In this document: positions 9,367 through 30,557 of the stretch, in pieces
Numbering within the stretch: position 1 is the first letter of the stretch
How the letters are laid out: every line of letters starts with the position of its first letter
NCBI GenBank assembly: GCA_031409655.1
Contig: JANNXQ010000075.1
Location: 1 to 46,412, forward strand
Direction: 5' to 3'
Source: Chthoniobacteraceae bacterium
Lineage (GTDB): Bacteria > Verrucomicrobiota > Verrucomicrobiia > Chthoniobacterales > Chthoniobacteraceae
Length of the DNA stretch: 46,412 nucleotides
The notes under the pieces: generated by a model
What the model saw: the letters and a program-made list of their open reading frames with translations, nothing else
The model's database searches: none
What the model was told of the DNA's origin: nothing
Position numbers and translations under genes: made by a program

Positions 9367-10023
9367 CTAAGGGATGATCAGCGACTGACCGATCTTGATC
9401 GTGGTCTTGCCGCCGAGGGCGTTGAAATTTGCATCGAGGATGTCCTTGGAACGCGCACGGTTTCGATAGTACTTCTGCGCGATGGAGGCCAGGGTGTCGC
9501 CCGCGGCGACGACATGGGTGCGCGCTCCGGGGGCGGCCACATCAGCCTTTCCGCGGACCACGGGCGTCGCGGGTTTTTTCCCGCGCAGTTCGGCGAGCTG
9601 CTTTTGGAGGAGCGCGTTTTCGTTTTTCAGCCGGACGGCTTCCCCCTGCGTCATCGGCGAACCGCTTTGCCCGGCCGACGCGAGACGACGCTCACTTTCC
9701 TGTTTCATGGACTTCGCTTCGCGAGCGCGCGGACCCTCCGGCGCGAGGTCGAGATAGCGATCGAGGTGATGCAGGGCATCCTTCGGCCGCTTCAACTTCG
9801 ATTCGTAGAGGAGCGCGAGTTTGTAGTGGGCGTCGGCGGATTTTTCCGTGCCATCAAAAGCCGACTCGTAGAGCCGCACCGCGCCGCGAAAATCACCGGT
9901 CGCCACTTTTTTGTCGGCGTCGAGGACGAGCCGATTTGCGTCCCGCGGGAAGATGCGGTCGCAGCCCGGCAAGGCCGCGAAGAGCAGAAGACCGACGCCG
10001 CTCCGCAGAAGCGCGCGTTTCAT
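9367..10023 (-). CDS. TPR + LysM lipoprotein
   Basis: Lipobox ALPGC; TPR-like AHYKLALLY; C-terminal LysM HVVAAGDTLASIAQKYY...IKIGQSLIIP; TGATG overlap with ppk2. Confidence 0.85.
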   Translation of the reverse strand: MKRALLRSGVGLLLFAALPGCDRIFPRDANRLVLDADKKVATGDFRGAVRLYESAFDGTEKSADAHYKLALLYESKLKRPKDALHHLDRYLDLAPEGPRAREAKSMKQESERRLASAGQSGSPMTQGEAVRLKNENALLQKQLAELRGKKPATPVVRGKADVAAPGARTHVVAAGDTLASIAQKYYRNRARSKDILDANFNALGGKTTIKIGQSLIIP

Positions 10024-10781
10024 CAGACCTTCCGGAACTTCGCCGCTCCCAGCGCATCCGCGATCGTGCGCACGACCCGCACGCGGGCGAACCACTTGAA
10101 GTTTGAGGGGATGACATGCCACGGCGCAACATCGGTGGATGTCTTCTCAAAGGTCTCCTCCGCGGCCTGATTGTGCTCCGTCCACTTCTTCCGATTCCGC
10201 CAGTCCTCATCGTTGATTTTCCAATGCTTGTAGGGATCGGCCTCGCGCCGCTTAAAGCGGTAGAGCTGCTCATCCTTCGAGATGTGCATGTAGAATTTCA
10301 GGAGGATGACGCCGTCATCCGCGAGCAGCCGCTCAAAGTCATTGATCTCCTGGTAGGCGCGCCGCCACTCCTTCTCCGTGGCGAAGCCCTCGACCCGCTC
10401 GACCAGCACGCGCCCATACCAGGAGCGGTCGAAGATGGTCATCTGACCGAAAGGCGGGAGCTTATTCCAAAAGCGCCAGAGGTAGTGATGCTGGTACTCT
10501 TCCTCCGTCGGCTTCACCACGGAATGCACACGGACGAGACGCGGATCGAGCCGCTCGACCACGCGTTTGATGGCGCCACCTTTGCCGGCAGCGTCCGGGC
10601 CTTCAAAGATCAGGATCACCGAGCTTTTCGTCTCCGTGAGTTCGCGCTGAAAGTTCAGCAGCTCGAGCTGCGCTTCTTTCAGCTTCGGCTTGTATTCAGA
10701 CTCCTCGAGCGACTTGTGGTCGAGATCTTCGAGGCGTTTCCCTTTTTTCAGGCCGATGGATTCTACGAGGACAGGCGGCAT
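10023..10781 (-). CDS. ppk2: Polyphosphate kinase 2 family protein
   Basis: FEGPDAAGKGG (Walker A), LDPR, FDRSWYGRVLVERV, WKINDEDWRNR. Confidence 0.93.
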   Translation of the reverse strand: MPPVLVESIGLKKGKRLEDLDHKSLEESEYKPKLKEAQLELLNFQRELTETKSSVILIFEGPDAAGKGGAIKRVVERLDPRLVRVHSVVKPTEEEYQHHYLWRFWNKLPPFGQMTIFDRSWYGRVLVERVEGFATEKEWRRAYQEINDFERLLADDGVILLKFYMHISKDEQLYRFKRREADPYKHWKINDEDWRNRKKWTEHNQAAEETFEKTSTDVAPWHVIPSNFKWFARVRVVRTIADALGAAKFRKV

Positions 10782-10970: not shown

Positions 10971-13565
10971 ATGAGCATCACCAGCGAACACGTCCGAAAG
11001 CACTTGAGGAGCATCCTGCTTCTCCCCCTCCTGCTTTCGCCACTCGCCGAAGTCCACGGCCAGTCGCCAGCGCGGGCTAGTCGGTCAGTCATCGATACGG
11101 AACGAGGTGGATATTTCACCTATCCGTATGCCGATCAGTGGAGCCGCTTCGGGGCGGAATTTGGGCGCACCAATTTCGAGTACGCCCAAATGCCAGCGAA
11201 CTCGATCAAGGGCATGCACGGGCGTCTGCAGCACTTTGCCGCAGTCGATAACCCGCCAAGCGGTCTCGCCTATTTTCCGTGGACTGAATTCCTCGCCTAC
11301 GACGCCGACGAAGTCGCGCAAGGCCGCCCCTCGCTGATCCCGACGGCGACCTATCAAGGCACGAAGCGTCCGCTCTACTTTAGCTACGGCGCCTACGACC
11401 CAACGAAGCCTTTCCAGCCCGTCAACGTTCGCGACGATCGCTTCGTCAAATTTTGGATCAAAAACTACGTGCGAGCGATCATGTCCGAGCCCTACGTGCA
11501 GAACTGGTGGATGGGCAACGATAACTGCACCTTCCGCTACAATCTCTATGGCGTGCTGGATAACAGCGGCACCTATGTGCAGAACGTCACCTGGGACGCG
11601 CCTTATCCGCAGAATGATACCGAATGGGTCTCCGCGAATCTCTACATGCTCGCCAAGGTGCGGGAGTGGGCGCCCAATATCCGGATCGTCTGCAACGATA
11701 TCGGCCTCAATGAAAGCCAGGCCGCTCGCCAAGCGGAGTTTATGCCCTACGTCGATGGCGTCATCCGCGAGGACTTCTGGATTCTCGCCGGTGGCGGGAG
11801 CGACTGGTATCGCAATGCCTTTTACGAATCGATGGCGCGCGGTGCCTACCGGGCTGGTCTGGGCAAGGTGGAGATCATCGAGGTGCCGATGGTGGCCACG
11901 GACACCGCGCAGCTCCGGCGCTCCTGGATGGCCTTCTTGATCTTTGGCGGCGAGAGTTGGTTCTTCGGCCCGAAAGACAATACGTCCCGCGAACTCAATC
12001 CGGCCTTGTGGGCGGACATGCGGAATCGCCTCGGCAAGCAAATGAGCCCAGCGCAAAGCATCGTGGAGGCTGGGCGCAGCGCGGGCTTCCGCCTCTACTC
12101 GCGGGAGTGTGAAGGTGGGATCGCTTATCTGAATTGGACGGGGGGTAATAAGACGATCTCGCTCCCTGCTGGCCGTAATTATTACAACCGCTCGGGCACT
12201 CAGATCACCAGCATCACCCTGGCGGACATGGTCGGCGACTACGTCCTCTTTTCACCGACGGCACGCGTCTCCTGGCCAGCGATTAACTCCCGCTATGAGG
12301 GACCGGTCACCGGCCCGGTCAGCGTGAAGATGGATATCGACCCGGTCTTCGGCACCGGCGCGACGATCCGCTACACCACCGACGGCTCCGATCCCACAGC
12401 ATCCTCACCGACTTACAACACTCCGATCGCCCTTTCGAGCAGCGCCACGGTCAAGGCGCGCGCCTTCAAGGCCGGGCAACTCGAGAGCTTCGTCAACGCT
12501 GCCACCTACTCGGTCCTTTCGATTTCGCCCGCGGTTGAATTTCACCTGAGCGCGGATGAAGGGAGCGAGTTTCTGGCCAAGGACTACCCGCTCGTGAAAC
12601 TGGCGAATGTCTCCTCGGCGACCGTTCAGGTAAGTTATTCTGTGACCGGCGGCAGCGCGACCAATGGCACCGATTACACTCTGGCCTCCGGCACCGTGAC
12701 CTTTCCTCCGGGTGAGCAACATCGTTACTTCAAGATCCCGATTACGAACGATCCTGTGGACGAGGCCAATGAGACCATTCAGGTCACGCTTTCCAACCCG
12801 GTGAACGCAACCCTCGGGACAAAGGCTACCTACACTTACACGATCATCGATAATGACGTCTCGGCCAACCAGGCACCCGTGGTCAATATCACGAACCCGA
12901 CAAATGGAGCGAGCGTCACCATCCCAACGAACTTGACCGCCAGCGTCACGGACGACGGCTTGCCAGGCCCCACCAGCACGCTCGTCACGCAATGGAGCAA
13001 GCAGGCCGGCCCCGGCAGCGTCACTTTCGCCGCACCCTCCGCTCTCAGCACCAGCGCCCACTTTTCGCTTCCCGGCTCCTATATTCTGCGCCTCACCGCG
13101 ACCGATGGACCACTCACGACGATCCGCGATGTGGCCGTCAATGTACGCGACAACTACACCGCGTGGACGAATCGCTACGGGCTCTCGGGCTCAAATCCCG
13201 ACGTGGATCGCGACGGCGTCTCCGACCTTGCCGAGTATGCCCTCGGCGGCCATCCGACGACGCCGTCAAATGCCCCGCGACCGCAGTCGGGCATCCTCGG
13301 CAACCGCCTTGCCCTGACCTTCCCACAGGATCCTTCGTTGACAGACCTGACCCTCACGGTCTGGGGCACGGACGACGGAAGCGCACCGTGGACGCCCCTC
13401 GCCTCGAGCGTCGGCGGGGGTCCGTTCACCATCCTTTTTCCCGGAGCCAGCGCCACCTCGACCCCCAATGGCTCGCTGCTCCATATCGAGATCCGTGACG
13501 CTTACACCGTGGGAGGTCCCAATGGCCGCGGACGCCTGCTCAAACTCCGGATTGAACGGCCGTAG
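10971..13565 (+). CDS. Secreted putative glycoside hydrolase (GHL15-like TIM barrel) + Fn3-assoc + Calx-beta + PKD-like + C-terminal DxDxDG domain
   Basis: Signal peptide; WMGNDN, DGVIREDF, RLYSRECEGGIAYLN; IRYTTDGSDPT; GTVTFPPGE...DEANETIQVTLSNP; VTDDGLP...PGSYILRLTATDG. Confidence 0.72.
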   Translation: MSITSEHVRKHLRSILLLPLLLSPLAEVHGQSPARASRSVIDTERGGYFTYPYADQWSRFGAEFGRTNFEYAQMPANSIKGMHGRLQHFAAVDNPPSGLAYFPWTEFLAYDADEVAQGRPSLIPTATYQGTKRPLYFSYGAYDPTKPFQPVNVRDDRFVKFWIKNYVRAIMSEPYVQNWWMGNDNCTFRYNLYGVLDNSGTYVQNVTWDAPYPQNDTEWVSANLYMLAKVREWAPNIRIVCNDIGLNESQAARQAEFMPYVDGVIREDFWILAGGGSDWYRNAFYESMARGAYRAGLGKVEIIEVPMVATDTAQLRRSWMAFLIFGGESWFFGPKDNTSRELNPALWADMRNRLGKQMSPAQSIVEAGRSAGFRLYSRECEGGIAYLNWTGGNKTISLPAGRNYYNRSGTQITSITLADMVGDYVLFSPTARVSWPAINSRYEGPVTGPVSVKMDIDPVFGTGATIRYTTDGSDPTASSPTYNTPIALSSSATVKARAFKAGQLESFVNAATYSVLSISPAVEFHLSADEGSEFLAKDYPLVKLANVSSATVQVSYSVTGGSATNGTDYTLASGTVTFPPGEQHRYFKIPITNDPVDEANETIQVTLSNPVNATLGTKATYTYTIIDNDVSANQAPVVNITNPTNGASVTIPTNLTASVTDDGLPGPTSTLVTQWSKQAGPGSVTFAAPSALSTSAHFSLPGSYILRLTATDGPLTTIRDVAVNVRDNYTAWTNRYGLSGSNPDVDRDGVSDLAEYALGGHPTTPSNAPRPQSGILGNRLALTFPQDPSLTDLTLTVWGTDDGSAPWTPLASSVGGGPFTILFPGASATSTPNGSLLHIEIRDAYTVGGPNGRGRLLKLRIERP

Positions 13566-19881: not shown

Positions 19882-19971
19882 TGGCGGTGAGGGAGGGATT
19901 TGAACCCTCGATACCCTTTCGAGTATGCCGCTTTAGCAAAGCGGTGCTTTCGACCACTCAGCCACCTCACC
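19882..19971 (-). tRNA. tRNA-Ser(GCT)
   Basis: GGTGAGG acceptor stem, anticodon arm CCGCT-TTGCTAA-AGCGG, long variable arm, GGTTCAAATCC, encoded CCA. Confidence 0.96.
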
Positions 19972-22376: not shown

Positions 22377-22453
22377 GCACTCGTAGCTCAATTGGATAGA
22401 GCATCTGACTACGGATCAGAAGGTTCCGCGTTCGAGTCGCGGCGAGTGCACCA
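22377..22453 (+). tRNA. tRNA-Arg(ACG)
   Basis: GCACTCG acceptor, TCTGA-CTACGGA-TCAGA anticodon arm, GTTCGAGTC, GAGTGCACCA. Confidence 0.97.
22408..22450 (+). repeat. att core (left copy, 3' part of tRNA-Arg)
   Basis: ACTACGGATCAGAAGGTTCCGCGTTCGAGTCGCGGCGAGTGCA identical to 28018-28060. Confidence 0.95.
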
Positions 22454-22500
22454 TTCCGGCTGAGGAACTTACGGCGGAGCCGGGCGGGTGCAGATTTCTT

Positions 22501-22523
22501 GCTTGGCCACCGCTTGGCCACTT
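22501..22523 (+). repeat. Integrase arm-type site pair (left)
   Basis: GCTTGGCCAC-C-GCTTGGCCACTT, 11-bp period; the same pair recurs at 27865-27887. Confidence 0.75.
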
Positions 22524-23054
22524 CCGCGACTCAAAGTAGCAATCCAGGTAGCAGCGGAGGGGGGGCGGGGGTCGCTGAATTACGGGACCGGGGGGCCAAT
22601 CGCGTTGGATTCGGACGCGCGACATGCTGACAAAGGCGACCGAGACGGCTGCCGATCGCCAACCCGGCCACGTCTCGCGATCATTTTCTGTGGATGGTTA
22701 AAAGAAGGCCGCAAAAAAAATGGGGCGGGAATCCACCAAGGGAGGAGGCGAATTGCACGGTCCTCCAGATAGTTCCCGGCGACGACCACCGCAGGCGCAG
22801 GAGCGAAGCGGGCGGAGACGACCGGACAAGCTTGATGGAGCACCAGCACCGGCCAGCGAGCGTGTGCAGGAGTCGCGGTTTGCACGTCTGACATGGGGGG
22901 CGCTACCTCCGGCGGTTCAAGACGATTCTACGGGCATCCTCGTGCGATCGCTGGAAATGGGTTTCGACCGCCAGCACTTTCACCAAAAAGCGAACGGCCC
23001 ACCCGAGCCTCTGCGATCTTGCTCCGAGCGAGCAAGGCCGGTGAGGATGGTGAG

Positions 23055-23390
23055 ATGAAGATGTTTCCCCTATTTGCATGCGCGGCGCTCGCGGGCTGTT
23101 CTACCGGTGTTGTGCCGGCCGGGCCGCAGACTTACATGATTTCAGCCTCGGTGCCGTTTGTGACGACGAGCGGTCCGGCCCGCGCGAAGGCTTATAAGCA
23201 GGCGGGCGAATGGTGCGCACGCCGCGGACTTGTGATGGTTCCAGTGTCAATCGACGCACAACCCGGTGTTCTTGGCCAGCGAGTGTCGGAGACAACGATG
23301 GTCTTCAGAGCGGTGCCGCCGGGAGATCGTGAGATCCAAAGACCCAATCTGGAAAAGCCCGATGTGATCCAGCGGGTGCAGTTGCGATGA
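23055..23390 (+). CDS. Small lipoprotein (element cargo 1)
   Basis: MKMFPLFACAALAGC lipobox; STGVVPAGPQTYMIS...AGEWC...FRAVPPGD resembles small phage/island lipoproteins. Confidence 0.75.
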   Translation: MKMFPLFACAALAGCSTGVVPAGPQTYMISASVPFVTTSGPARAKAYKQAGEWCARRGLVMVPVSIDAQPGVLGQRVSETTMVFRAVPPGDREIQRPNLEKPDVIQRVQLR

Positions 23391-23603
23391 CGAGGATACT
23401 TCTCGGTTCCGCCTTGCCCAACAACAACAGGAACCTGCCAGCTCCCGGCCAGCTACTGGCTCCCCCACTGGCTCCCCCATTAACTCTCCTATTGGCAGGC
23501 TGATTCGAGCGGGCTGACGGCGGCAGCGGGCGTCCAACGCAGCTTAAAACGGCGCGCCCGGAGATGACCTTGCTCCGGCCAGCGGAAACCGCAAGATGGG
23601 GGC

Positions 23604-24230
23604 GTGAAGAAAACCATTGCACTCGTCTTGTGTGCTGCGCTGCCGGGCTGCGGTCCGCCGCCCAAGACTGAAACGGAAAAACCTCAGTTCTCGAACGAGG
23701 AACTTCTTACCATGACTTTGGATTCGCATGACGACTATGCCGAGATCCTTGCCCTGCGCGGGCAGTTTGATTCGACTTCCGGGAGGCAGATTTTGAAGGC
23801 CTACGAGCAAATGCAGTCACCTTTAGCTTCGGTTCGCAAGACAGGAACAATGTTGGTGCCCGAGGAAACACCCACGGCAACTGCTCAAAGGCTAGCGCGC
23901 GAATTTGGGCGGCCAGTCGCCGACGTGGCAGCGCTGATCTTTGCGTTCAGCCAGCTCAACGTGATGGAAAAGCCAATCCAATCGGAACGCGGGCTTGTGG
24001 CGTTGAAGTATGGCGTTGCTGAGGAAGTTCATCGCGCTATCTGGCAAGCTTTCGTCAATCGCAGGGGCGGCATGTTGGGTTGGAAAGCTAGCGGTGGAAA
24101 ACTTCAGATTCCGCCACCGTCAAGCGAGCCGATGGAAACGACAGTAGCGAAGCTTGCGATCCAATTTAACCTGGACCAAGCAGCCGTGGTAGGCCTCATC
24201 GCCGACGACCTCCGCACCATGGAGAAATGA
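23604..24230 (+). CDS. Lipoprotein with internal two-fold helical repeat (element cargo 2)
   Basis: GTG start, MKKTIALVLCAALPGC lipobox; two similar helical segments. Confidence 0.75.
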   Translation: MKKTIALVLCAALPGCGPPPKTETEKPQFSNEELLTMTLDSHDDYAEILALRGQFDSTSGRQILKAYEQMQSPLASVRKTGTMLVPEETPTATAQRLAREFGRPVADVAALIFAFSQLNVMEKPIQSERGLVALKYGVAEEVHRAIWQAFVNRRGGMLGWKASGGKLQIPPPSSEPMETTVAKLAIQFNLDQAAVVGLIADDLRTMEK

Positions 24231-24449
24231 TGCATTACTGTGTGCGGGCGTATCGAGCACAGACGATCGAAGAATGACATCAATCCCCGGGTTCCAAAAT
24301 GGAAACCCGTGGGTTTCCAAATCTGAACCGAAATGAACCCGGCGGTTTCGTTCGGGAGGGCTTCCCAAGCCCTTCCCATCCCCATGCCAAGGGCTTCGGG
24401 GAGCGGTGAAGCCCTTGAGGGTCGCCGCTGCCCGCCGGCCAGGCCTCGG

Positions 24450-25295
24450 CTAAAAGGCAGCGTCTCGATAGGCGAGGGAAAATTGCGTGGCGGTGCAATG
24501 AATATCACTCCATTTGCGGACGAGAGCGGCTGGCGATCGCGGCAACAGGTCCGCCCAAAATCCAATACGGTGCTCGTCGAAGGGTTCGTCCTTCCTTGCT
24601 CGAGCTTCGCGGTAGAACCATTCGACATCCTTGATCTCGTCGTCGGTGATCGGATCCTGGCGATGGATTTCCAAAATGCACCGTCTGTCCTGCTTCGTCG
24701 GAGGTCGATGGGAGCATCCCTCATAGCACGGGAACAGCTTGCAGATTCGGCTCCAAAATCTTCCGACAAATTCGTCCTCCTCCACTCTCTCTCGAACGGA
24801 GTGAGCAGGGGAGAGAGTGGTAGGTTCAATTACCTTTTCTTCTTTAACAGTGCAGACCCGGATTTTCGGGACTGCGGTGTCCCGTGGCTTCGGGATTGCG
24901 GCGACCTTCACGAGCTCGAGATCTTGCGCCTTGGCGGTGAGGTGGACATACATCCGACCAGTGCGGGATTTCTTCGGCAGGATGATGCCCCAGCGGGAGA
25001 GGTCTGCAATCAGGGAACCCATTCGATTGATGTGGGTCTTCAGAACTACTTTTCGCCGGAAGATCATGGGATTCTGCTCAATCGCGGTCTTGTAGTCGAT
25101 CCATGTGAACTCCGTCCCGTCGCGAGTGATTCGATTCGCGTTCGGGTAGAACCGCCATCCGCGTATCCAATCGAGGAGCATCGCATGCTCCGGTTTGAAC
25201 ACGTCCAGCAGACCGAGCGCCGCAATGGCGTCCTGGTTGATGTGGTAGGTCCGCTTGATCGAAGCCGACTCAGCGGCGATGGCCGGGGCGTTCAT
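24450..25295 (-). CDS. Phage-type replication initiator-like protein (N-terminal winged helix)
   Basis: LLDWIRGW...DGTEFTWIDYK...LIADLSRWGII (wHTH-like), low-complexity linker (KEEKVIEPTT), helical C-domain; coupled to the Xis-like gene. Confidence 0.6.
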   Translation of the reverse strand: MNAPAIAAESASIKRTYHINQDAIAALGLLDVFKPEHAMLLDWIRGWRFYPNANRITRDGTEFTWIDYKTAIEQNPMIFRRKVVLKTHINRMGSLIADLSRWGIILPKKSRTGRMYVHLTAKAQDLELVKVAAIPKPRDTAVPKIRVCTVKEEKVIEPTTLSPAHSVRERVEEDEFVGRFWSRICKLFPCYEGCSHRPPTKQDRRCILEIHRQDPITDDEIKDVEWFYREARARKDEPFDEHRIGFWADLLPRSPAALVRKWSDIHCTATQFSLAYRDAAF

Positions 25296-25513
25296 CGGGA
25301 TGCGACGATGTGGCCGTCGCGTTCGAGAGCTTCAATCGCGACGACCGGGATCAGCGTGCGGCGACCGACTTTCACCACAGCGAGCTTGCGCTGGCGTGCC
25401 CAGCGGCGGCAGCTCTCGGGGTGCCACTTCCACCGGGCGGCGAGTTCGCGTGGAGTGAGGTAGGTGGGTGGGGTTGCGAAGGGATCAGAGTCGGTGGGTG
25501 GAGTGATTTGCAT
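25292..25513 (-). CDS. Excisionase/HTH_17-like DNA-binding protein
   Basis: YLTPRELAARWKWHPESCRRWARQRKLAVVKVGRRTLIP. Confidence 0.85.
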   Translation of the reverse strand: MQITPPTDSDPFATPPTYLTPRELAARWKWHPESCRRWARQRKLAVVKVGRRTLIPVVAIEALERDGHIVASR

Positions 25514-25577
25514 ACGCCCATTGTGAAGGAGGCGATTGCATCCAGACCGGGGACAAATGCGCGCCGCTGCGCTCGCC

Positions 25578-26507
25578 TCACGTCCCCGATTTTGCCCGGT
25601 CCTTCCTCGGCGCCCGCAGATCGCGGATGTGCTTCTTCACCGTTTCGCGTTGCCGTGTGCGGTGAAGTTTCTCGCGAAGTTTCTCCGCCGATGGCGGTTT
25701 CTTCGGGTCGGTTTTGTAGGGCGGCAGTGCGCCGACCTTGACCAGCAGTTCGCGATGCTTCGCGGGCTTCCATCCGATCTTCTCATCGCCGGCCGCATTC
25801 TGCGCGATGACGATCGCACGGCGGGCGGTGCCCTGGGGACGGTAAAATTCGATCCAGTGCCGCATGATCGCACCCAAGAACTTCTTCAACGCGCTGGAAT
25901 CGCGGACCCACTGACGGCAGAATGCGGGGAGGATCTCGCGTGGAAGTGGTAACGCAGACAGCGTGACATCGGTCACGCTCCGAGCGTGACGCGAAACCTC
26001 GCCGCCCGGGGCGATTGCCGCGAACGCGCTGGCGTGGACGAACGCCCGCACCAGCCGATCGAGCTCGCGGAAGAATCGAGTTTCCGCCTCACGGTCTGCG
26101 AAGTGCCGCTCGATCCGGCGCCATTCCGCAGGCCGATACCGGACGGCATACGCGCGCCTCTTCTCAGGATCTACAGGGATGTCTCCCATCCCCTGGCCGA
26201 GGCGCTCAGCGCAGGCCAGTGTGAACCGGTGCAGCTCGTCACCATCGGCAGGAACGACTTTCACCGATTGCAGCGTCACCAACCCCGAGACGATCTCCCC
26301 GAAGTCGAAGGCGGCGTCCTCCCTCATCCGCTCGTCCTGGATTTTCGCGACGTGCTTCCACACTATCTCTTCGCAGAGTTCTTCGCCAATCTTGCCGGGC
26401 TGCCGCTGGTTCGTTCCAAGGATCGCAAACGCATCTTCGACTTCCTTCCGGCGCTTCCTGGAAGTCGTCGCGGTCTTGCTCCCCTTCTCCGTCTTCTTCG
26501 CGCTCAT
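25578..26507 (-). CDS. Hypothetical protein coupled to integrase
   Basis: 309 aa; ATGA overlap with the integrase stop; basic termini; no recognised motif. Confidence 0.7.
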   Translation of the reverse strand: MSAKKTEKGSKTATTSRKRRKEVEDAFAILGTNQRQPGKIGEELCEEIVWKHVAKIQDERMREDAAFDFGEIVSGLVTLQSVKVVPADGDELHRFTLACAERLGQGMGDIPVDPEKRRAYAVRYRPAEWRRIERHFADREAETRFFRELDRLVRAFVHASAFAAIAPGGEVSRHARSVTDVTLSALPLPREILPAFCRQWVRDSSALKKFLGAIMRHWIEFYRPQGTARRAIVIAQNAAGDEKIGWKPAKHRELLVKVGALPPYKTDPKKPPSAEKLREKLHRTRQRETVKKHIRDLRAPRKDRAKSGT

Positions 26508-27874
26508 GCGATGCGGGTTTCCGGCGCTGGCACTGCGCGGATCATGGGCTCAGTGAGAAGATCGCCGAATTCGAGGGCGATGCGGCCCCGGTTCGAGACG
26601 TAGTGTCCGGCAGTCGTCTGAATGTCGCGGTGCCGGAGGGCGGCGGAGGCAGCGTAGAGGCCGAAGCGGGCGTTCAGCATGGAGCCGAATTCCTTGCGGA
26701 GCACATGGAGCGGCTTTCGGTCCACAACGCCCTTCGCTCGCAACCACGCGTAGAGCCGCTCGAAGGTGGGCTCGGCACGGTAGTATTGCCCGCCGACATT
26801 ATCGCGATGCCGCCGCGGGCTGCCGATGACGAAGGCCGAGCGCGAGGAAGCCATGTGGTGACGCAGTTCGGTGGCGAGCGCGGGGTCGATCTCCACTTCC
26901 GCCGCAGACTCATCGCTTTTCAGTTCGGCATGCTCGGTGACGGCGAGTTGGATGATGTTTCTGCCGAAGTCGATTTGGTCCCAGCGCAGGGTGTCGATCT
27001 CCGCCTTCCGCAGGCCCGCTCCGATCGCGAGCAGGAACACGGCGTAGGCGTCAGCGTCGGCGTCGCGAAGTTCACGGCGCGCAGCAGCGATCAGCGCGGG
27101 CGCGTCGATCCGGCTGGCATACTTGGCCGGCGAGGGCTTCGAGAGCTTCAGCGTCGCGAACGGCAGCGGGTTTGGTAGCTCGATCTTCTCCGCCACGAAG
27201 CCAACGATCTTCGGGCTGAAGAGACTGCGCGCGCAGCGAAGATAGGAGTTCGCACTGCGCTCCGCGCTCTTACGGGCCGCAGGGTCCAGCGCCCGCTTCA
27301 TGAAGGCCACCTTCCACGCCTGGAGCTTGGCGGCGGTGATGTCAGCGAGGCGGACCGCATCGACACGCCCAAGCCAGCGATCGCGGCCCCCAGCACGGTA
27401 GTCGAATCTCTCTTTCCCGCCGTCGATGTGGCAGATGTCGGCGACGATCTTCCGCAGATAGCTGGCGTAGAGCTTGAAGGTCTTCTCCTTCCGCTCGAAG
27501 ACTCCCTCGGCGGCGGCGAGGTACTGGCTCACCGTCACCTTCGCGGCGGCGATCTTCGCGTCGAGCTTCGCCCGGCCGTACTTGGCCAGCGCATCGTCCC
27601 AAGGGTGCGCGATCACGTAGGCGTGAAGCTCAGCAGCGAGACGCGCGGCCTTCTCCTTATTGGCGGTGTGAAGGTTGAAACAATGGCGTCGTCCCCCCTT
27701 AGCAATCCGCACCGCGAGTTCAGGAACGTGATGGCGTTCACCGTCCCGCGTGTAGGTGGGATGGAAGAGGCGGGTTTTCCAGTAGCGGGTGTCATCAACG
27801 GGCGATCGTTTGGCTGCCAGACGCGGCGTTTCAGCGCCCACTGGCGAGTGGCCAAGCACGGGATGCTTGGCCAT
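26504..27874 (-). CDS. Tyrosine recombinase/integrase
   Basis: GLRKAE (R), LKSD (K), LHVLRK (HxxR), LRH (H), TAGHY (Y); start uncertain (27874 or 27919). Confidence 0.93.
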   Translation of the reverse strand: MAKHPVLGHSPVGAETPRLAAKRSPVDDTRYWKTRLFHPTYTRDGERHHVPELAVRIAKGGRRHCFNLHTANKEKAARLAAELHAYVIAHPWDDALAKYGRAKLDAKIAAAKVTVSQYLAAAEGVFERKEKTFKLYASYLRKIVADICHIDGGKERFDYRAGGRDRWLGRVDAVRLADITAAKLQAWKVAFMKRALDPAARKSAERSANSYLRCARSLFSPKIVGFVAEKIELPNPLPFATLKLSKPSPAKYASRIDAPALIAAARRELRDADADAYAVFLLAIGAGLRKAEIDTLRWDQIDFGRNIIQLAVTEHAELKSDESAAEVEIDPALATELRHHMASSRSAFVIGSPRRHRDNVGGQYYRAEPTFERLYAWLRAKGVVDRKPLHVLRKEFGSMLNARFGLYAASAALRHRDIQTTAGHYVSNRGRIALEFGDLLTEPMIRAVPAPETRIA

Positions 27875-27887
27875 TGCTTGGCCACTT
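27847..27887. repeat. Integrase arm-type sites (right): one inverted and two direct copies
   Basis: AGTGGCCAAGC (27847-27857, inverted), GCTTGGCCAT (27865-27874), GCTTGGCCACTT (27876-27887). Confidence 0.75.
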
Positions 27888-28017
27888 TTCGGGTTTGAAT
27901 GGGGTTTCTTCGGTTGCATGATGTTGGATGGTGTATTGCGTAACCGGCTCTTTTTCTTTTTCTTGGAGAGCGACTTAACGCAACTGTATGCAACCGGACC
28001 AAATCGACAAGGGTAAA

Positions 28018-28060
28018 ACTACGGATCAGAAGGTTCCGCGTTCGAGTCGCGGCGAGTGCA
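28018..28060 (+). repeat. att core (right copy; tRNA-Arg 3' fragment without CCA)
   Basis: 43-bp identity to 22408-22450. Confidence 0.95.
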
Positions 28061-29753: not shown

Positions 29754-30557
29754 ATGCGAATCCTCGCCGTCCTGCTTTTTCTCATCCTCGCAGGCCCTGC
29801 CGCGTCGGCGAGGCCGTGGCAAAGCTGGAAGGACTGCACCCTGGAAACGGAGAAATATTTCGATGGCGATAGCTTTCACATCCGCCACGGGCGCGAGATC
29901 GTGATCATCCGCCTCTACTTCGTGGACGCGCCCGAGACTGACGATAGCTACGCCGCGCGGGTGACCGAGCAGGCTGCGTATTTCAAAGTGAACCGCAGCA
30001 CCGTCCTCAATGGCGGCGAGGCGGCGAAGCGCTTCACGGAGAAGTTCCTGTCGCGCCCCTTCCGCGTCATCACGCGCGAGCAAGCGGCTCCCGGGGCCAG
30101 CCAGGCCCAGCGCTACTACGCCATCGTCGAGACCTCCGCCGGTCGTCTCGATGCGGCGATGGTCGCCGCCGGACTCGCGCGCCCGAGCAGCGAGATTGCG
30201 GAATATCCCGACGCCACGCACGGACATGAGACCGTGCAAGATCTCCGGCTCGCGGAACAGCAGGCCGCAAAAGCCCGCCGCGGCTTGTGGGCGCATTCCA
30301 ATGCGCGCCCTGGCTCGATGAACGATGCGCTCAAGCCAACCCTCGGAAAAAACGCCGCCAACGCCGCAAGCCTGGCCCGGGTCAATCTGAACAAAGCCTC
30401 CGCGGCGGAGCTCGCAGCGCTGCCGGGAGTCGGAGCAAAAACCGCCGAGCAGTTCATCCACGCGCGGCCCATCAAGGATCTCGAGGCCCTCGATGCACTC
30501 CCGGGCATTGGTCCGAAGAAGCTCGAAGCGTTGCGCGATCTCGTCCGCTTCGAGTGA
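29754..30557 (+). CDS. Secreted thermonuclease (SNase) fused to ComEA-type helix-hairpin-helix
   Basis: DGDSF...IRLYFVDAPE...RYYA...GLA...ARRGLW; C-terminal VNLNKASAAELAALPGVG...LPGIGPK. Confidence 0.85.
   Translation: MRILAVLLFLILAGPAASARPWQSWKDCTLETEKYFDGDSFHIRHGREIVIIRLYFVDAPETDDSYAARVTEQAAYFKVNRSTVLNGGEAAKRFTEKFLSRPFRVITREQAAPGASQAQRYYAIVETSAGRLDAAMVAAGLARPSSEIAEYPDATHGHETVQDLRLAEQQAAKARRGLWAHSNARPGSMNDALKPTLGKNAANAASLARVNLNKASAAELAALPGVGAKTAEQFIHARPIKDLEALDALPGIGPKKLEALRDLVRFE

Follow-up and report, generated by a model that had tools for sequence, protein, structure and literature searches.

The stretch of DNA analyzed here, hereafter the window (46,412 nucleotides, contig JANNXQ010000075.1 of assembly GCA_031409655.1, from a Chthoniobacteraceae bacterium of the phylum Verrucomicrobiota), carries a 5.6-kb island that occupies a tRNA-Arg(ACG) gene and whose layout resembles that of the smallest phage satellites known. 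Our reading, to which we give an even chance, is that this island is an intact, normally silent, single-copy integrative replicon, most likely spreading as a minimalist phage satellite like the PICMIs (phage-inducible chromosomal minimalist islands) of Vibrionaceae. Within this reading the integration and excision machinery appears well supported by the anatomy of the element, and replication from an origin inside its own initiator gene appears well supported by its relatives. Verrucomicrobiota are abundant in soils and sediments, and their mobile elements have barely been described. Newly described here are the arm repeats at both ends, the in-gene origin candidate and a recurring group with the gene order int, open reading frame (ORF), xis, rep. 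This layout was not found described in the literature on Verrucomicrobia phage satellites, tRNA integrative elements and PICMIs, a scope outside which lie subscription papers and the supplements on integrative mobile elements encapsidated in virions (VEIMEs).

Borders, recombination genes and gene content of the island

The island is flanked by rplI-dnaB on one side and guaB on the other, with the tRNA-Arg gene between rplI and guaB. This target gene (22377-22453, plus strand) is detected by ARAGORN and by Rfam (RF00005) and is intact, and we infer that its 3' half is supplied by the element. The perfect 43-bp att repeats claimed in the initial annotation are borne out: the attL core (22408-22450, plus strand) is identical to the attR core (28018-28060, plus strand), the latter being the displaced 3' half of the tRNA gene, with a repeat-to-repeat spacing of 5,610 bp. 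The 43-nt identity begins 1 base before the 7-nt anticodon loop (22409-22415), which is a standard crossover position for tyrosine integrases, and stops just before CCA. Just inside attL lie two arm-type repeats (TGCTTGGCCA-like, 11-bp period; 22500-22520, plus strand) and just inside attR lie three more (27849-27884), one inverted (27849-27858) and two direct (27864-27884). Drawn from those same sites, the 10-bp arm motif has four exact matches in these 46 kb, all four within 170 bp of the att cores; a sister element from the metagenome scan described below (L033) carries, at either end, analogous pairs of repeats of its own. These repeats are presumably the expected arm-type sites bound by the integrase and would give an attP of about 300 bp. 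Those on the right overlap the first ~30 codons of the int ORF, as they do in relatives, which may place the real start of int downstream of 27919 and makes autoregulation of int possible.

The genes of the element comprise four minus-strand ORFs (int, an orphan, xis and rep) and two plus-strand ORFs with a lipobox, and the int-hypothetical-xis-rep cluster with two ATGA-coupled pairs, as first annotated, agrees with our ORF coordinates. The tyrosine integrase (26504-27919, minus strand; 471 aa from the first ATG) matches PF00589 (E 2e-10) and phrog_1 (E 1.5e-25), and its catalytic residues, previously called intact, are indeed so, with R304, K334, H405, R408, H430 and Y440 invariant in 7/7 aligned relatives. 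Joined to int by a 4-nt ATGA overlap (26504-26507) is the orphan ORF (25578-26507, minus strand; 309 aa), for which no homologue was found, which shows no similarity to its counterpart in sister element L040 and which gave a weak Atlas match to a Verrucomicrobiota cluster (0.91, low recognition). By position, and by position only, it would be an analogue of PICMI iolg; the idea of FseA-like activators for such int-overlapping ORFs found no support from Pfam in the eight equivalent ORFs scanned. The excisionase-like helix-turn-helix (HTH) protein (25292-25513, minus strand; 73 aa), coupled to rep by the second ATGA overlap, matches HTH_17/PF12728 (E 6e-7) and phrog_66 (E 1e-5), with TIGR01764 below cut-off.

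All six main ORFs are open, and phage gene fragments were not seen among them. Only Int and Xis have family matches, the other four having none in Pfam, PHROGs or NCBIfam. Searched against these three collections at E<=0.1, none of the six matches a capsid, terminase, relaxase or type IV secretion system family, as the initial annotation had it, the sole exception being phrog_57 (small terminase; E 0.064), to which Xis has a weak HTH match. The small ORFs at 22580-23079 have no Pfam match, and a promoter scan returned 1 site versus 1.2 expected. In a congener (G001) the same 77-nt tRNA gene is unoccupied; an empty tRNA-guaB junction was not found, guaB having other neighbors in 5/5 relatives. 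Taken together, these data support an integrative element that looks intact and excision-competent and that carries a replication module. With both att sites and the arm repeats in place, and with L033 complete at 6,498 bp, the element is not just the terminal part of some larger prophage.

Rep, the putative origin and the wider family

The predicted replication initiator Rep (24450-25295, minus strand; 281 aa) consists of an N-terminal winged helix, an iteron-coding linker and a helical C-terminal domain. Since the window protein has no direct family match, its assignment rests on relatives, fold and context. No close homologue was found, and 30 distant ones share mainly residues 14-130; nine of the 30 match phrog_270 ('replication initiation protein'). 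In the structure model the winged helix is confident (predicted local distance difference test score, pLDDT, 93-97 over residues 21-120), with a disordered linker and a helical C-terminus of lower confidence. Foldseek against the PDB places the initiator N-terminal domains 4PT7/4PQL, which we take to be plasmid RepA_N proteins, in its top rows (E 0.03-0.05), and a wide structure search puts 4PTA first with Z 8.2 (root-mean-square deviation 5.7, 111 aligned), a score tied with unrelated winged-helix proteins. Rows returned from viral models (BFVD) include replisome organisers, the Atlas neighbors at 0.95-0.96 are phage initiator clusters, and no plasmid homologue of Rep was found. Stronger evidence for the role of Rep than these fold and family matches is the locus context: an IstB/DnaC-like ATPase directly follows rep in three of the nine related loci read (L033, L034 and L035). 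The host genome carries dciA.

Within rep lies a putative origin (24782-24896, minus strand), composed of two 18-bp inverted-symmetry units with a 24-bp period (24879-24896 and 24855-24872), an AT tract (24825-24849; G+C 6/25) and a 10-bp inverted repeat (24782-24791/24811-24820). The repeat pattern was derived from these sites themselves, and its support is conservation: in relatives the rep linker DNA has, at the corresponding place, three units of inverted symmetry spaced with a 24-bp period, and after them an A-rich tract and a short inverted repeat; the linker repeats are kept in 7/7 aligned relatives. The repeats and AT tract are thereby likely to be an origin. In phage lambda, too, the origin sits inside the initiator gene, O.

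Scanning metagenomes with an alignment of 10 Rep sequences returned 14 loci, of which nine were read; one (L038) appears to duplicate L037, and four fall short of 2.5 kb. An integrase lies upstream of rep in 7/9, three of these integrases belonging to the clade of the window integrase (41-43% identity) and four, by eye, to another. A tRNA gene adjoins four of the nine, and most have a large unrelated ORF between int and xis. L033, at tRNA-Arg(ACG) with an integrase 43% identical to that of the window, has the order int, putative toxin-antitoxin pair, ORF, xis, rep, ATPase. Among the ORFs of the nine loci, read by eye with selected ones scanned, none was recognised as encoding a capsid protein, terminase or relaxase. 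The synteny that had been proposed for searching thus recurs in metagenomes, which argues for the existence of a family whose host is probably Verrucomicrobiota, the phylum of the best named lipoprotein relatives and of the orphan ORF's Atlas cluster. Among genomes, with that of the window excluded, the Rep family was found in 4/400 of the order and 2/400 of the phylum, mostly by its C-terminal part. Two sister loci hold further genes recognised by eye: a group II intron-type reverse-transcriptase ORF between int and the next gene (L037, 5456-6979), and defence-like cargo, with ATPase and type I restriction-modification-like genes, following the sister element (L040, 11888-20504).

The integrase clade reaches further, being present in 30/151 genomes of the host family. 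It pairs with primase/helicase modules (L018, which has a methyltransferase alongside, and L024), lies beside metal-resistance-like genes (L019), stands alone (L023), and turns up in viral contigs that look phage-like and hold terminase or virion-type genes (L096, L097 and L099, by eye; 10 loci returned, 3 read). Given these varied pairings, the integrase is a shared part and it is the int-ORF-xis-rep layout that defines the group. The ~9-kb L024 element, between tRNA-Phe and tRNA-Gln and with a primase/helicase-like module, also holds a CRISPR-like array (L024:10946-11556; G007:C1 ~555945-556555) of 10 units with a ~28-nt repeat and a 61-nt period. Most of its spacers are near-perfect palindromes, with similar palindromes at L024:9420-9500 and 10005-10038; Cas1 was not found in its 83%-complete genome, nor does the repeat match any viral contig exactly. 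This array could be an operator-decoy, an anti-CRISPR RNA array or an artefact.

As to cargo, the two plus-strand lipoproteins proposed earlier stand, their lipobox cysteines having been read by eye. Lipoprotein 1 (23055-23390; 111 aa, Cys15) has 22 homologues in which the cysteine is invariant, and 37 genome loci with the best in Verrucomicrobia, and thus appears to be cargo from a widespread family of small lipoproteins. Its model (pLDDT 81) weakly resembles a dodecin/RcsF-like beta-alpha-beta fold (best Z 5.8). Two distant loci in viral contigs hold relatives, and a further relative (L047) lies 3.4 kb from a tRNA and an integrase among host-like genes. Lipoprotein 2 (23604-24230; 208 aa, GTG start, Cys16) is orphan cargo with no family match and none in phage records or 200 further genomes from the order. 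A role of the pair in phage exclusion or defence is a guess from their location, and the searches lent it no support: neither has a match in phage records or PADLOC, and fold matches are weak. Sister element L043 has a convergent lipoprotein after rep (11402-11848) with no evident similarity to these two and no Pfam match. Between the converging lipoprotein 2 and rep lies a hairpin-rich gap with inverted repeats (24235-24450), whose DNA fold has z -2.7 (3/200 shuffles equally stable) and which has no Rfam match; it is possibly a bidirectional terminator or a cis site.

Proposed mode of spread and its alternatives

The mechanism we propose would run in four steps. Int would recombine the ~300-bp attP with the tRNA-Arg anticodon loop, restoring the gene, a step for which the anatomy argues strongly, and arm-bound Int lying over its own 5' end could limit its own expression. 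By analogy, induction of xis-rep would supply the directionality factor, possibly acting with the integrase-overlapping ORF, to excise a 5,610-bp circle. Winged-helix Rep would then bind the inverted-symmetry units in its own gene, melt the adjacent AT tract and recruit host DnaB via host loading factors, this member having no loader gene; this step, too, is well supported. In the last and least certain step a helper phage would package the amplified DNA unmodified, probably as concatemers, and the lipoproteins would be envelope cargo that possibly blocks phage entry. Helper packaging is proposed because the element has no capsid, terminase or relaxase, and a phage is the likeliest helper given the parallel with PICMI115, an island of 6,110 bp and six genes that has an ATGA integrase-overlapping gene needed for excision, lacks packaging genes and is packaged in the form of concatemers (PMC10803314). 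There are temperate phages whose integrase belongs to the clade of the window integrase, as the viral contigs indicate.

A number of observations count against this proposal. In the freshwater sediment metagenomes of one study (four runs, none of them of RNA or a virome), read as assembled contigs (unitigs) of public DNA runs, the element is one unbroken unitig in two runs (5,624 and 5,637 nt), and its depth in the two best runs, possibly the source of this DNA, is 9.9 and 14.2 versus ~9-20 in the flanks, a ratio of about 1:1. The coverage check that had been suggested therefore gave no sign of amplification, and the element was integrated and single-copy in those samples. An attP or attB joint was found in none of 15/17 joints, but this is uninformative as unitigs break at the 43-bp repeat. 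No packaging gene was found in the element and no conserved packaging site among relatives, and the left-end DNA has only chance-level matches in phage records and 150 family genomes. Second att repeats were not found for L037, L040, L041 and L043 in the stretches searched (4/7 int-rep loci). Window Rep has no PHROG or Pfam match, its Z score is the tied one given above, no loader gene follows it, and its gene holds two units, of slightly different sequence but the same period, against three in relatives. The Rep alignment found no relative in viral contigs. Lastly, the sole terminase in the host genome looks split. This lambda-gpA-type gene (L162; G000:C20:670-5777; PF05876, E 2e-36) is apparently spread over several ORFs beside one of peptidase/lysin-like type, where a 14-kb contig begins; this phage-like locus is a candidate helper or remnant. 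The host genome, 95% complete, has no match to PF05065, PF03237, PF03354 or PF03135, capsid and VirB4 families among them. With the terminase locus apparently split and neither capsid nor VirB4 matched, no resident helper is shown. In run X4 the flanks also occur as variant contigs (depth 7-9) and the element is thinly covered, a hint of a related strain without it that we do not count as evidence. Two candidate cis sites were discarded: a cos-like resemblance of the G-rich stretch at ~22555-22610, with chance-level matches only in phages and the 150 family genomes, and a 14-mer shared with L033, chosen after the fact, in opposite orientation and present in 2/105 loci, one being the window.

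Three other accounts must be weighed. The element could be a trimmed remnant of a temperate phage or larger island: loader and late genes would have been lost, and the early int-xis-rep region and both att ends kept. The phage-like viral contigs with the same integrase clade, the phage-type Rep and the loader found in 3/9 sister loci and absent here speak for such a history, as does a second congener (G002), in which an att copy of the same tRNA lies beside a related integrase of this clade and the other element genes are absent. The six open ORFs with no phage gene fragments, an independently complete L033 and the absence of capsid or terminase after rep in all nine Rep loci (by eye, selected ORFs scanned) speak otherwise, and we hold a remnant to be rather unlikely. 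Islands with only an oriT exist, and the element might be an integrative mobilizable element that has no relaxase and is transferred by a conjugative helper acting on a cis oriT in the gap at 24235-24450 or at the left end. That the gap folds better than its shuffles and that the Rep fold resembles plasmid initiators fit this account; the missing VirB4 match in the host genome, the missing plasmid homologue of Rep and the want of a conserved cis motif among relatives, the L033-shared 14-mer being post hoc, do not, and we consider it improbable. To a helper-independent selfish islet, excising and replicating briefly and spreading passively by vesicles, transformation or generalized transduction, we assign the same low likelihood as to the oriT-based account. 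In keeping with passive spread, neither a gene nor a site for hijacking can be detected, replication and cargo modules vary freely among elements of the integrase clade, and satellite-like concatemers are reported from a vesicle fraction (PMC9618062); the phage-type initiator and PICMI-like order would instead suggest phage-triggered amplification.

A bolder form of the satellite reading, which we think less likely than not, would have a PICMI-like Verrucomicrobiota satellite family that reached the minimalist layout independently, with tRNA-targeting integrases shared with local temperate phages, a phage-type initiator whose gene contains the origin (a DnaC-like loader being optional), packaging without any hijacking gene and lipoproteins excluding competing phages. 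Should the element prove to be packaged by phages, the strategy of PICMIs would be no peculiarity of Vibrio, and it could work with an initiator-origin module that would escape present satellite detectors; should it be no more than an islet or a remnant, nothing would set it apart from ordinary elements that target tRNA genes. The attP, the arm sites and the ~850-bp rep/origin cassette are candidate genetic-tool parts for a phylum with few.

Elsewhere in the window, beyond dnaB, a tRNA-Ser(GCT) gene (19882-19971, minus strand) is the second tRNA gene, and the host gene after guaB (29754-30557) fuses a staphylococcal-nuclease domain to ComEA-like helix-hairpin-helix motifs.

Comparison with known systems

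Lambdoid O-type and RepA_N replication modules share with the element an N-terminal winged helix and, within the gene, an AT tract and inverted repeats resembling iterons; a DnaC-like loader lies downstream, as in relatives of the element. The window module differs in having only two units and a divergent C-terminal domain and in lacking a loader and virion genes. Integrative mobilizable elements are recognised by a relaxase, a family that none of the six ORFs matches. PICIs and SaPIs (phage-inducible chromosomal islands and Staphylococcus aureus pathogenicity islands), as defined for SatelliteFinder (PMC10085698), likewise combine an integrase, a small regulator and a replication gene in a compact island. 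The window element differs in matching no small terminase (the weak Xis-phrog_57 hit aside) or capsid-morphogenesis gene and in its size (5.6 kb versus a median of 9.5 kb). Its initiator has no primase-replicase match and no direct family match, and its candidate counterpart of the regulators alpA, merR or stl is the Xis-like HTH_17 protein (Pfam, PHROGs, NCBIfam); with at most three of five components it would be a low-confidence type C (PMC10085698).

VEIMEs (PMC9618062) are, like the window element, small, integrase-bearing and without capsid genes. Some carry an excisionase or plasmid-like initiators, and Verrucomicrobia are among their hosts. They are marine and defined by concatemers in virions, whereas the window element comes from freshwater sediment and was read in assembled DNA, and the Verrucomicrobia-linked Module 3 has mostly serine recombinases whereas the window Int is of the tyrosine type (PMC9618062). 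Gene-poor integrative satellites, some in Verrucomicrobia, have already been described (PMC9618062).

The closest parallel is with PICMIs (PMC10803314). Both measure ~6 kb (here 5,610 bp), contain six genes and are bounded by short direct repeats, both have the order int, ATGA-overlapping orphan gene (iolg in PICMIs), small HTH directionality factor, replication gene and cargo, and neither has capsid-remodelling or packaging genes. PICMIs lie next to fis, have AlpA as a core gene and use a primase, whereas the window element lies in tRNA-Arg, its HTH protein matches PF12728/phrog_66 and no AlpA family at E<=0.1, making it a functional analogue at best, and its initiator is a winged-helix protein with an in-gene origin, with no primase match. 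By site, AlpA and primase it is not a PICMI; the host phylum is another, the likeness is one of layout with no sequence relationship seen, and packaging would follow by analogy. The candidate new satellite family of the initial annotation consequently survives as a recurring group with one complete sister, its novelty tempered by the PICMI parallel and by VEIMEs (PMC10803314, PMC9618062). On its sequence, the element reads as a minimal replicon that integrates, with a layout like that of PICMIs and an initiator of the phage type.

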